NCBI GenBank assembly: GCA_964507065.1
Contig: CAZDON010000001.1
Location: 1 to 47,517, forward strand
Direction of reading: 5' to 3'
DNA: 47,517 bases
Source of the DNA: an uncultured Ruminococcus sp.
GTDB taxonomy: Bacteria > Bacillota > Clostridia > Oscillospirales > CAG-272
Below the pieces are notes generated by a model. That model was not told where the DNA came from. It searched no databases and worked only from the letters and a program-made list of their open reading frames with translations. Below, in pieces: positions 21,970 to 43,949 of this stretch (its first letter is position 1; each line of letters opens with the position of its first letter). The position numbers were made by a program, and so were the translations under genes.

Positions 21970-23049
21970 GTGAAAATTCTCATAGGTCTTTCGGGCGGAG
22001 TGGATTCGGCATATGCCGCACGCCGTCTTATTGAGGACGGTCACGAGGTAGAGGGCTGTGCCTTGCTTATGCACCAATATACCGATACCGAAATGGCAAG
22101 AAAATGTGCAAAGGCGCTCGGTATAAAATTCCGTATTATCGAATGTACCGATCCCTTTGAAAAGATAATTAAGTCGAGCTTCATCAGCGAATACTTAAAG
22201 GCAAGAACACCAAATCCCTGCGTTATATGTAACGGGGAAATTAAGTTCAGATTTCTCTATGATATTGCAATGAGAGAGGGCTTTGATGCAATAGCGACGG
22301 GGCATTACGCAAGTGTAGTAAGGACTGATGACGAAGGCACCTATTCACGCCCCTATTTTGTTGGCGACACTCTGTCACCAACGGAGCATGTGACGCTTAA
22401 GGTCGGATTTGATGAAAAGAAGGACCAGACCTATATGCTCTATCGCGTAGACGAGGAAGTGTTAAAGCACCTCGTGCTTCCTTTGTCAAATATGACAAAA
22501 GGACAGGTAAGGGCCGCGGCAGAGGCGTGTGGTATACCGTCGGCCAACGCCCGTGACAGTCAGGAAATTTGCTTTCTTCAGGGTGAGCACTACGCCGATT
22601 ATATCGAGCGTGTGTCAGGCAAATGCGAGCGTGGCAATTTCATATCCGAGGATGGCAGAGTCCTCGGCACTCACGAGGGAATTATACGTTATACGGTAGG
22701 GCAGCGCAAGGGACTCGGCATTTCATCAACGGGGCGAATTTTCGTTACTGATATAAATCCTATTACCAACGAAATAACGTTGAGCCACGTGGATAAGCTA
22801 TCTCACACCGTGTATGTCAGTGACCTCAGGCTTCTTGGAATATCACGAAAGGACGAGCCTGCCGAATATAGATTTACGGTAAAGCTTCGCTATGCGAAGG
22901 CGTCAGCTCCAGCTCTTGTTGAAATAGCGGGGGATAGGGCGGTCATACGTCTTGATACACCGCAAAGGGCAGTAACACCCGGGCAGTCAGCCGTTTTTTA
23001 CAAAGATGGCGTGCTTATCGGTGGCGGCATAATAGATAGAAGCGAATAA
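21970..23049 (+). CDS. mnmA: tRNA-specific 2-thiouridylase
   Basis: GTG start. PP-loop GLSGGVDSA, NPCVICN motif, full-length MnmA-like sequence. Confidence 0.92.
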   Translation: MKILIGLSGGVDSAYAARRLIEDGHEVEGCALLMHQYTDTEMARKCAKALGIKFRIIECTDPFEKIIKSSFISEYLKARTPNPCVICNGEIKFRFLYDIAMREGFDAIATGHYASVVRTDDEGTYSRPYFVGDTLSPTEHVTLKVGFDEKKDQTYMLYRVDEEVLKHLVLPLSNMTKGQVRAAAEACGIPSANARDSQEICFLQGEHYADYIERVSGKCERGNFISEDGRVLGTHEGIIRYTVGQRKGLGISSTGRIFVTDINPITNEITLSHVDKLSHTVYVSDLRLLGISRKDEPAEYRFTVKLRYAKASAPALVEIAGDRAVIRLDTPQRAVTPGQSAVFYKDGVLIGGGIIDRSE

Positions 23050-36533: not shown

Positions 36534-36745
36534 TGATTTTGTTTTCCTTTCGTAATTTTGTTTTTTTGGGGGGTTGTATCGTACGATTTGTTTTTCCAAG
36601 CGTAACGAGTCGCTTTTTCTCGCGCTTTCCGCTTGTGCGATAGCCACGAAGTCGATACGTCTTACTTGTTACGCGTTAAGGTGCGTAAGTCCTATATATC
36701 CTGAGCCTCTTGTGAGGCGGTTTATATCTGATTTTGGGTATAAGA

Positions 36746-36773
36746 AAAGCACACTGCCGAAGCGGTGTGCTTT
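36746..36773 (-). terminator. intrinsic terminator closing cassette 2 (repeat copy 1)
   Basis: The minus strand reads AAAGCACACCGC-TTCG-GCAGTGTGCTTT followed by TCTTATACCCAAAAT. 12-bp stem with a UUCG loop. Confidence 0.7.
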
Positions 36774-36781
36774 GTAATTAT

Positions 36782-36964
36782 TCATTTTTCTAAAACATTG
36801 AATAAAGAAGGTGGATATAGAAAATCCTCTCCACTTTCGTCAATGATAGAATACCATTTTAACTTTTTGCTAACACTTATGACCTCATATACTTTCCCTT
36901 CGATGAGATCTACCGTGCTTAAATTCGTCTTTTTCCTTGCAACTTCATTGACTACGACCTTCAT
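36782..36964 (-). CDS. small ORF B2, immunity-like partner of A2 (60 aa)
   Basis: ATG at 36964 is 1 nt after the A2 stop, with a GGAGA SD 8 nt upstream. MKVVVNEVARKK...WYSIIDESGEDFLYPPSLFNVLEK. AT-rich. No family recognised. Confidence 0.6.
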   Translation of the reverse strand: MKVVVNEVARKKTNLSTVDLIEGKVYEVISVSKKLKWYSIIDESGEDFLYPPSLFNVLEK

Positions 36965-36965
36965 A

Positions 36966-37427
36966 CTATATCTCCGATTTGAATTTAAACTCAACTTTTC
37001 CGACGTGTGATTCTTCGTACCAATGGATTTCTGCTTTCAAATACTCGCCGTATTTCGTAACAATTTCCGCAACTGCTTTAACTTTCATCCATTCGCTTTC
37101 TATTGTACCGGGATAATCATGCAGCAAACGGTTAATATCATCAATTTTTCGGACGCATCCTTTACCTGCAAATATTTCTTTGTTTTGAAGTTTAGATCCT
37201 TCGACAAAACTGGCGATTCCACCGTCGGGCATTTTTATATCATGATTCGCCCATTTCGCACCGACAGAACGAGGAATATCCTCATCTGGAAGTTTTACCG
37301 TATCATTAAACGTATGGCTAATAGGCTCGCCGCTGCCGGGGAGTATCGAACCTATCTTTCCGCCCGCATTTCCGTCCGTAAACCTGCCTAAATCATCTCT
37401 CGGATGGTCTTTTTCATTCCATATCAT
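36966..37427 (-). CDS. HPR-GRFT leader protein A2, candidate capsid-delivered effector/toxin
   Basis: 153 aa. N-terminus MIWNEKDHPRDDLGRFT..GSILPGSGE is paralogous to that of ORF 42781..43269. C-terminal domain ..KGCVRKIDDINRLL..KAEIHWYEESHVGKVEFKFK. Lies immediately after the MuF-like gene. Confidence 0.6.
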   Translation of the reverse strand: MIWNEKDHPRDDLGRFTDGNAGGKIGSILPGSGEPISHTFNDTVKLPDEDIPRSVGAKWANHDIKMPDGGIASFVEGSKLQNKEIFAGKGCVRKIDDINRLLHDYPGTIESEWMKVKAVAEIVTKYGEYLKAEIHWYEESHVGKVEFKFKSEI

Positions 37428-37456
37428 AGTATATCATTATTCCTCTCGGTTGTCAA
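37428..37456 (-). promoter_or_regulatory. near-consensus sigma-A promoter abutting the A2 start codon
   Basis: The minus strand has TTGACA (37456-37451, containing the MuF TGA stop), a 17-nt spacer, and TATACT (37433-37428), directly followed by the ATG at 37427. Confidence 0.5.
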
Positions 37457-43556: not shown

Positions 43557-43949
43557 TCAAAATTTCGAGAATTTTTCGCGGAGCGCGCTCAATGTACGCT
43601 TGACCGTCCGCTCACACATATGCAGCTCCGTCGCAATCTTCCTCACGCTCCAGCCGCGCCTGTACTTCAGTATAAGCACGTCGTACTCGTTCTCGTCAAG
43701 CGTCTTTCCGAATCGTTCAAGTGTACAATACGCGTCGTGGACTGCTCGTCTTGCGTCCTCTCGTGCGCTAAGCAGCTCCTCGTGCTTCTGACAAATGGGC
43801 GCGAGCTTGTCGTGACTCGCGGGCGTTGCGTTGAAGCCCTCGCCCGACGGCGCGGGCGGGGCGTAGATAACAGACTCGTATTCCGTGAGATTATCTCTTG
43901 CGCGGTTTAACGATTTTACAGCGTTTATGTATATTTTTAAGCTATCCAT
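43557..43949 (-). CDS. phage late-gene transcriptional regulator, sigma-70 region-4 / RinA-ArpU-like HTH
   Basis: 130 aa. C-terminal HTH ILKYRRGWSVRKIATELHMCERTVKRTLSALREKF. Lies just upstream of the packaging module, as late activators do in Bacillota phages. Confidence 0.5.
   Translation of the reverse strand: MDSLKIYINAVKSLNRARDNLTEYESVIYAPPAPSGEGFNATPASHDKLAPICQKHEELLSAREDARRAVHDAYCTLERFGKTLDENEYDVLILKYRRGWSVRKIATELHMCERTVKRTLSALREKFSKF

Follow-up and report, generated by a model that had tools for sequence, protein, structure and literature searches.

The A2–B2 locus

The window analysed here is a stretch of 47,517 nucleotides (nt) from an uncultured Ruminococcus sp. (contig CAZDON010000001.1). 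Its minus strand carries, in this order, genes for TerL, a portal protein, a MuF-type minor head protein, two small proteins called A2 and B2, a scaffold-like open reading frame (ORF) and an ORF of 363 amino acids (aa). A2 and B2 make up a cassette (cassette 2; coordinates in Table 1), the possible function of which is the subject of this paper, and a paralogous unit, cassette 1, lies elsewhere in the same prophage, which is that of a gut-type Firmicute. An initial annotation, made from the letters alone, had placed an effector/immunity-like pair between the MuF and scaffold genes. The 153-aa ORF that it reported directly after the MuF-like gene is present, as is the 60-aa ORF that begins 1 nt after the stop codon of the first and has its own GGAGA. 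The claim of an insertion between MuF and scaffold stands for MuF, which is recognised by Pfam and by phrog_581; the scaffold is assigned by position and composition only. A2 and B2 are not chance ORFs because both have large families of homologues (43 clusters for A2 and 2205 for B2).

The cassette is a self-contained, compositionally foreign unit with a promoter-like site and a terminator. The content of guanine plus cytosine (GC) is 0.36–0.41 over positions 36700–37300 versus 0.52–0.58 in MuF and 0.53–0.57 in the 363-aa ORF, so that the segment is AT-richer than the genes on both sides, as had been noted. At its upstream end, the -35 box of the promoter-like site overlaps the stop codon of MuF and the -10 box ends one base before the ATG of A2. 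At its downstream end, a terminator with a UUCG loop and a 12-bp stem had been described. The hairpin and its U-rich tail are there, but the stem is not perfect: on the sense strand, one of its 12 positions is a C.A mismatch and the other 11 are Watson-Crick pairs.

Table 1. Features of the two cassettes and of the adjoining packaging and head genes (window coordinates)
Feature	Position	Strand	Remarks
A2, 153 aa	ATG 37427 to TAG 36968-36966	minus	
Likely A2 ribosome-binding site, GAGAGGA	37441-37447	minus	inside the promoter spacer, 13 nt before ATG; read from sequence
A2 N-terminal motif, W3-N-E-K-D-H-P-R-D-D-L-G-R-F16 (pattern W.E..HPRD..G.F)	37380-37421	minus	kept in A2-type homologues
A2 Gly/Ser/Pro-rich linker, residues 17-42	37302-37379	minus	predicted local distance difference test score (pLDDT) <50 at residues 21-38
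A2 effector-like domain, residues ~43-153	36969-37301	minus	delimited by alignment and AlphaFold2
B2, 60 aa	ATG 36964 to 36782	minus	starts 1 nt past the A2 stop
B2 ribosome-binding site, GGAGA	36975-36971	minus	within the A2 3' end, 6 nt before the B2 ATG
UUCG-loop hairpin	36773-36746	minus	AAAGCACACCGC-UUCG-GCAGUGUGCUUU, then UCUUAU; U-tract and 23-mer extend the element to 36732
Cassette 2 promoter-like site, sigma-70-type	37456-37428	minus	TTGACA-17-TGnTATACT, 11/12, extended -10
Cassette 1, paralogous	43296-42502	minus	
Cassette 1 promoter-like site	43296-43268	minus	TTGACA-17-TGnTATAAT, 12/12; -10 box overlaps ATG by two bases
Cassette 1 HPR-motif protein, 162 aa	43269-42781	minus	starts MKQWKEEEHPRNKIGRF; C-terminal part unrelated to A2
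Cassette 1 partner, 69-aa overlapping ORF	42791-42582	minus	zinc-ribbon-like; Cys_rich_CPCC, E 2.2e-5
TerL	42089-40707	minus	phrog_3717, E 3e-12
Portal	40324-38660	minus	phrog_533, E 5e-26
MuF-type minor head protein, 409 aa	38682-37453	minus	short form without C-terminal cargo; Pfam Phage_min_cap2, E 1.2e-11 (residues 218-373); phrog_581 'minor head protein', 6.8e-17
Scaffold-like acidic ORF, up to 209 aa	36647-36018	minus	position and composition only; no family match
363-aa ORF		minus	at the major-capsid position, after the scaffold-like ORF

The A2 protein and its C-terminal domain

A word-indexed search found homologues of A2 in 43 clusters, all of them 112–200 aa long. Their alignment is divided into three parts: a W.E..HPRD..GKF motif, a variable Gly/Ser-rich stretch and a conserved domain that begins at about residue 43 and is referred to here as the A domain. 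The invariant residues of this domain are N61, E76, G77, G88, G90, W113, K117, H135 and W136. The AlphaFold2 model has a mean pLDDT of 82, with block means of 88–96 in the C-terminal domain bar one dip to 66, and the predicted topology is strand-strand-helix-strand-strand-strand. In addition, the conserved residues K115/K117, E133/H135 and K148/K150 alternate along strands 3, 4 and 5 and should therefore line one face of the sheet, beside the FAGKG loop. We infer that this Glu/His/Lys-lined face of the model is likely to be the place where the domain binds, or acts on, a phosphorylated substrate, for example RNA.

Searches of Pfam, PHROGs, NCBIfam and PADLOC gave no match for A2, and neither did a sequence comparison with the chains of the PDB. 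Foldseek against BFVD matched the model to nothing except the C-terminal ends of 'minor capsid' proteins from metagenomes (40% identity, E 6e-11). A2 differs from the BECR/PBECR RNases in that its conserved His lies in a strand and not in an N-terminal helix, and there is no PBECR/Ntox or Foldseek match. It differs also from the polyvalent proteins, which combine two or more effector domains in a large polypeptide, as A2 is a single folded domain in a protein of 153 aa.

The A domain is fused to head proteins in other phages

An exhaustive profile search showed that the A-domain family comprises 1975 representative proteins or clusters at E<=1e-3 and 708 at E<=1e-10. Among the best 150 matches, 74 are proteins of 240–1073 aa with the domain at the extreme C-terminus. 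Pfam scans of these 74 proteins (E<=1e-3) gave 46 matches to recognised carriers, namely Phage_Mu_F (21), Phage_min_cap2 (17), VG15 (5) and portal families (3). One further protein each has a Hint/intein between MuF and the A domain, a NUDIX domain, and a PBECR3 match whose position within the protein was not located. The survey for MuF proteins with an A2-like C-terminus, which the initial annotation had proposed, thus gave a positive answer: the A domain is shared, as a cassette, with the MuF proteins of other phages, as is the case for MuF polymorphic toxins. The 40 genome loci retrieved via the A domain all come from gut, rumen or faecal bacteria, mostly Clostridia. Searches by tblastn with A2 and with the fused-type domain gave no match in 50,697 records of GenBank phages, which fits the absence of the domain from the family libraries.

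In the window, MuF and the A domain are not part of one polypeptide: MuF ends at 37453 and A2 has its own ATG at 37427. The start codon lies 25–28 nt past the MuF stop (37455-37453), in frame +1 relative to MuF. This close spacing and the +1 frame, exactly where the fused forms carry the domain, are what would be expected if A2 were the true C-terminus of MuF, reached by a programmed frameshift or severed from it by a recent mutation. However, a TGA at 37436-37434, three codons before the ATG, closes the A2 frame between the MuF stop and the A2 start, so that no single frameshift can join the two, and a consensus promoter-like site fills the spacer. MuF itself is complete because its Pfam match reaches position 364 of a 366-position model, and its identity, over its length, to the MuF parts of the fusions sampled does not exceed 24%. 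The homologues of A2 begin, as independent genes, at the same M-x-W-x-E position, and the free-standing A2-type genes form a clade of their own, with other positions in other phages. Of the two versions of this explanation, which had been raised as alternatives, the frameshift is excluded and a recent split has no support; the explanation as a whole is extremely improbable. It is concluded from the comparisons that a ready-made cassette sits where the fusions carry their cargo, rather than the product of a recent fission.

B2 is the partner of the A domain

The B2 family consists of 2205 clusters of proteins of 52–69 aa. B2 matches phrog_34144 (5.9e-08), and neither the A2 nor the B2 family matches any entry of known function in four libraries. 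For the B2 family, there was no match in Pfam, NCBIfam or PADLOC and none to a helix-turn-helix or ribbon-helix-helix family. AlphaFold2 predicts, with a pLDDT of 92, an SH3-like small barrel, which in the model has five strands and can be superposed on SH3 domains. The top Foldseek matches in the PDB are all SH3 domains, with a probability of 0.99, template modelling scores of 0.55–0.64 and E values of 0.03–0.08 for the best four, and the matches include the protein YorP of the B. subtilis phage SPbeta. When the B2 profile was compared with PDB sequences there were weak matches only (E 0.06 and above), SH3 domains among them.

The association of the two families was studied using hidden Markov models of both, which were compared with translated ORFs at 53 loci: 13 retrieved via A2-type proteins and 40 genome contigs retrieved via the alignment of the fused-type A domain alone. 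In each of the 53 loci, the A-domain ORF is followed directly by a B2-like ORF, both where the A domain stands alone and where it forms the end of an ORF of up to 1045 aa. Of 47 distinct junctions, 31 show a 4-nt overlap between the stop of the first gene and the start of the second, and seven an 11-nt overlap; in the window there is a gap of +1. Pairwise distances within the A and B families are also correlated (Spearman 0.61, 49 distinct pairs), a value reached in 0 of 2000 permutations. B2 is, as judged from gene order and co-divergence, an obligate, usually translationally coupled, co-diverging partner of the A domain, and it is a candidate immunity or inhibitor protein.

One protein, P0041 (L054:98-595), was considered as a natural A2–B2 fusion and was rejected as evidence. 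Its contig is only 1 kb long and comes from a single run, another frameshift lies upstream, and invariant residues are changed; a one-base indel probably removed the stop, in what is probably an assembly error or a pseudogene. Separately, a weaker promoter-like site (TTGAGT-18-TATAGT, 9/12) is seen on the minus strand at 36965-36994, with a -10 box that ends directly before the start codon of B2. This may be merely the AT-rich spacer after the ribosome-binding site.

Other homes of the A–B pair

The A–B pair is found with MuF, with portal proteins, free-standing, and in a triad with DUF4417. Free-standing pairs of the type that carries the HPR motif were seen in three settings: a bacterial chromosome where no head gene lies within 5 kb (L001), a phage-like contig (L002) and, in three IMG/VR phages (L007, L010 and L011), the position immediately upstream of the terminase genes. 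The triad, which consists of DUF4417, a motif-less A gene and B, is conserved in Coriobacteriia-type contigs (L004:4421-5598, L047:2170-3551 and L058:2923-4177). It adjoins Thoeris ThsA/ThsB, or restriction-modification and SNF2/DUF4391 genes, and because of these neighbours it may be a defence system; its proteins have no PADLOC match. Finally, a B2-like gene without a partner (L055-L057:4001-4165), seen on 110 contigs, lies past a tRNA fragment and the holin and endolysin genes of a prophage, and no A-domain remnant is present upstream of it. By analogy, it resembles an orphan immunity gene. Taken as a whole, the hopping of the domain between carriers, the partner that is kept, the orphan partners and the defence islands have the look of toxin/immunity pairs.

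These locations bear on the suggestion that A2 and/or B2 are ordinary head accessory proteins with a role in decoration, assembly or a protease-related step. Such a role would suit a pair that sits between MuF and a scaffold-like gene, but the pair also occurs far from head genes and outside phages. The low GC content, the promoter-like site and the terminator of its own speak against that role as well, and no head-protein family or fold was matched, in agreement with the earlier remark that the C-terminal part of A2 does not look like a virion structural protein. This explanation is very improbable.

The W.E..HPRD..G.F motif

The N-terminal motif of A2 recurs in cassette 1. The codon for its Arg is AGA in A2 versus CGT in cassette 1, from which it follows that conservation acts at the level of the protein. 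In L001 and L002, additional ORFs beside the A2-like genes also start with the motif, and their C-terminal parts are unrelated.

Using a degenerate DNA pattern, the motif was found in at least 120 viral stretches (IMG/VR contigs, L061-L180). Among the matches listed, most copies are inside long ORFs, mostly those of portal, MuF or polyvalent proteins, while about 15% head small ORFs, and a Gly/Ser-rich run follows nearly every copy. The motif is often repeated every 150–250 aa, with three copies in L132 (5911-7411) and L125 (3694-4615) and two in L070, L115, L116, L172 and L180. A Pfam census of 62 motif-bearing ORFs of 300–1300 aa found Phage_portal_3 in nine, ADPrib_exo_Tox in five and LPD3 in four. 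Phage_Mu_F, ART-PolyVal, Zeta_toxin and NUDIX were present in three ORFs each; InPase, PBECR1, PBECR3, RelA_SpoT, DUF2213 and the prohead proteases (Peptidase_S78, Peptidase_S78_2) in two each; and Portal_Mu and LPD13 in one each. Because of these families, the motif seems to punctuate head-associated multi-domain effector proteins. Together, the motif and the Gly-rich linker have the appearance of a signal at domain junctions, and A2 resembles a single arm of such a multi-domain protein, encoded alone. A role of the motif in loading, tethering or proteolytic processing is possible.

The motif was also considered as the junction between MuF and cargo within the A-domain family, and this was rejected: it is present in 0 of the 74 fused proteins, one of which has a loose variant, YHDEKGRF. 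No description of the motif was found in the text of the paper on polyvalent proteins (PMC5512222), and it may be undescribed so far.

Cassette 1 and moron-like regulation

Like A2–B2, cassette 1 encodes an HPR-motif protein and a small partner, and both cassettes are low in GC. Only one homologue of cassette 1 was found by database search, and another is present in L001, where homologues of both cassettes stand in tandem. The promoter-like sites of cassettes 1 and 2 are the two best in 9.5 kb, and the pattern TTGACA-N17-TATAMT-R has only these two matches in the window and 0 in shuffled sequences. In both cassettes, the ribosome-binding site lies inside the promoter spacer. Cassette 1 has two hairpins, the first of which is followed by the same 23-mer as the hairpin of cassette 2 (GTGTGCTTTTCTTATACCCAAAA / GTGTGCTTTTCWTATACCCAAAA); this 23-mer has only two copies in the window, at the ends of the two cassettes, and 0 in shuffles.

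Phage morons, as described by Hendrix and colleagues, are extra transcription units between late genes that have a sigma-70-type promoter, an intrinsic terminator and a deviant base composition. Promoter-like sites that abut the ATG and homologous terminators make the cassettes look like morons, and on sequence features A2–B2 belongs with them, as it has a promoter-like site, a terminator, a deviant composition and an insertion between late genes. A unit of this type is present twice in the window prophage. Unlike a typical moron, each cassette has a -10 box that abuts the start codon and a ribosome-binding site in the promoter spacer, and the promoter's own transcript should consequently lack the start of the first gene. 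With initiation about 7 nt past the -10 box, this transcript would begin at codons 2–3 of A2, without the start of the effector, and would keep that of B2. With low confidence, it is proposed that lysogens may make the immunity protein only, and that the effector may come from late read-through transcripts.

The geometry is shared by L001, L002 and L007/L156, which have 1–4 nt between the -10 box and the ATG. Three members of one lineage (L008, L010 and L013) have an ordinary 29-nt leader between promoter and ATG, and in L001 a terminator is located just upstream of the promoter. An ATG-abutting promoter as a general trait of small genes headed by the HPRD motif was tried and rejected: among 19 of them in viral contigs, L156 is the sole case, and L156 shares its upstream sequence and N-terminus with the A2-type locus L007.

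A2–B2 as a candidate effector/immunity cassette

The A domain is probably an effector or toxin domain, judging from its homologues and their settings. With a probability of roughly 0.6, A2–B2 is a free-standing effector/immunity-type cassette of a kind that is normally attached to phage head proteins. The effector/immunity-like layout that had been proposed is in keeping with the C-terminal domain fused to MuF elsewhere, the B2 homologue downstream in 53 of 53 loci and the foreign composition of the cassette. On this comparative evidence, the pair is filed as a free-standing variant of the MuF/polyvalent theme of cargo plus immunity.

MuF polymorphic toxins carry a variable C-terminal domain on MuF, an architecture that has been described previously (Zhang 2012, PMC3482391; Jamet 2017, PMC5576092), and the setting described for them is the prophages of Firmicutes (PMC5576092). 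According to one paper (PMC11699363), experimental characterisation has covered just two kinds of MuF cargo, Apk2 and Bxa, and both have adjacent small immunity genes. The likeness to A2–B2 is close in three respects. Within the packaging/head module (TerL, portal and MuF identified) of a temperate Firmicute phage, the cassette comes directly behind the MuF coding region; A2 has a variable domain of C-terminal type, which many other phages carry as a fusion to MuF; and B2 is the small downstream ORF. In contrast to the MuF toxins, the A2 domain is encoded separately, with a start, a promoter-like site and an N-terminal HPRD arm of its own, and both the domain and its partner lie outside Pfam, NCBIfam and PADLOC. 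Polyvalent proteins are encoded by phages and conjugative elements, and their simple forms share the fused-domain architecture (Iyer 2017, PMC5512222). A2 has the motif and Gly-rich linker in common with them but has one domain and not many; it resembles a single arm encoded alone with a partner gene.

In the proposed mechanism, the A2 domain would be harmful to a bacterial cell, acting as an enzyme on a phosphorylated substrate such as RNA, and B2 would bind and block it in the cell that produces it. During lytic growth, A2 would be translated from read-through transcripts of the late operon, which hold its ribosome-binding site and ATG. It would then be loaded into the capsid via the HPRD-motif arm, doing in trans what the MuF or portal fusion does in cis, and the packaged protein would enter the next host along with the DNA. 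In a lysogen, the cassette promoter would start transcription just inside A2, and B2 would be made and A2 would not. Lysogens would be immune because the cassette transcript would make B2 but not A2.

There is a possible analogy for the HPRD arm. The internal proteins and Alt of phage T4 are unrelated small proteins with a short N-terminal capsid targeting peptide that are packaged in the head and injected. The HPRD motif has no sequence similarity to this peptide and is usually internal, not N-terminal. That the motif and Gly-rich linker form a portable tag for head loading or processing of free-standing effectors, and that this is coupled with an immunity-only lysogen transcript in Clostridial cassettes, is a speculative extension and is considered unlikely.

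Several results weigh against the effector/immunity interpretation or against parts of the mechanism. The Foldseek comparison with known folds returned no standard head fold, and it returned no toxin fold either: against the PDB nothing was found at E<=0.001, the best E value being 0.11, so that the fold matches no solved toxin. Likewise, no toxin family of Pfam (PBECR/BECR, Ntox and others) was matched even at E<=1. As both comparisons failed to match a toxin, the activity ascribed to A2 is a guess. Charge complementarity between the two proteins was looked for and is absent, with both the A2 domain (pI 6.1) and B2 (pI 6.2) slightly acidic. The motif is not needed for fused delivery because 0 of 74 MuF- or portal-fused A domains have it, and adjacency to MuF is not obligatory because HPR-type cassettes also occur in L001 and upstream of terminase genes. 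Finally, the idea of an immunity-only transcript is weakened by the leader in L008, L010 and L013 and by the upstream terminator in L001.

Some of the same findings would be explained if A2–B2 were an intracellular moron of the prophage, a toxin–antitoxin or abortive-infection unit that serves phage exclusion or prophage stabilisation and is never packaged. The DUF4417–A–B triads stand beside Thoeris, restriction-modification and SNF2/DUF4391 genes, the L001 cassettes have no head genes within 5 kb, the cassette is away from MuF in other phages, and it has its own sigma-70-type promoter-like site and terminator. However, where a member of the family has a recognisable carrier, it is mostly fused to the C-terminus of a virion protein, MuF or portal, and A2 bears the junction motif that is typical of the cargo arms of portal, MuF and polyvalent proteins. 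The antitoxin of a type II toxin–antitoxin system is usually encoded upstream and has a DNA-binding domain, whereas B2 is downstream, SH3-like and without such a domain. There is also no PADLOC match for A2 or B2. An intracellular unit is possible but, on balance, unlikely.

The effector/immunity interpretation shares with a further alternative the idea that A2 is injected. Here, A2 would be a non-toxic effector, acting for instance against host defences, and B2 would be a chaperone, packaging adaptor or regulator. Counter-defence effectors have been proposed to be among the polyvalent and MuF-fused domains (PMC5512222), any obligate partner would be compatible with the strict synteny and co-divergence, and the A2 domain resembles no known toxin. 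Against this, B2-like genes are found without A, like orphan immunity genes, the module is present in defence islands that are not of phage origin, and the layout matches that of the MuF toxins that have been tested experimentally (PMC11699363). A non-toxic effector is accordingly held to be rather improbable.

What is new here is the cargo domain family, the SH3-like partner family and the unusual regulatory layout; the theme itself is known. The analysis adds a very common cargo domain without a library match (1975 representative clusters) together with its partner family (2205 clusters), and it provides evidence that cargo can be uncoupled from its carrier. In addition, a short motif marks the cargo arms of portal, MuF and polyvalent proteins alike and could be used to mine for injected effectors. 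The proposed mechanism gives a testable route by which such cargo proteins could get into capsids, and a checkable hypothesis for how a prophage could keep an immunity gene on and a toxin off.

The carrier prophage

The first ~23 kb of the window (1-23100) consists of bacterial genes, including those for IspG, PolC, GlmM, an ABC transporter, an M3 peptidase, a ROK kinase, an IscS-like cysteine desulfurase and MnmA. Because this region carries PolC and the other bacterial genes, the phage genes are assigned to a prophage of a Firmicute with PolC. The prophage boundary is expected a short way past mnmA (21970-23049); none of the window ORFs that were tested was recognised as an integrase.

The scaffold-like ORF is of low complexity and rich in Glu, Asp and Lys, and it was the source of the sole matches that blastn of the region gave among GenBank phages, which lie in protease genes of mycobacteriophages. 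Homology to these genes was rejected, the match being one of low-complexity acidic composition. Just upstream of cassette 1 and the packaging genes, the minus strand encodes a 130-aa protein (43557-43949) with matches to sigma-70 region 4 and extracytoplasmic function sigma factors and weak matches to antiterminator Q. This sigma-like protein could be a late-gene regulator that decides whether the terminators of the cassettes are read through.

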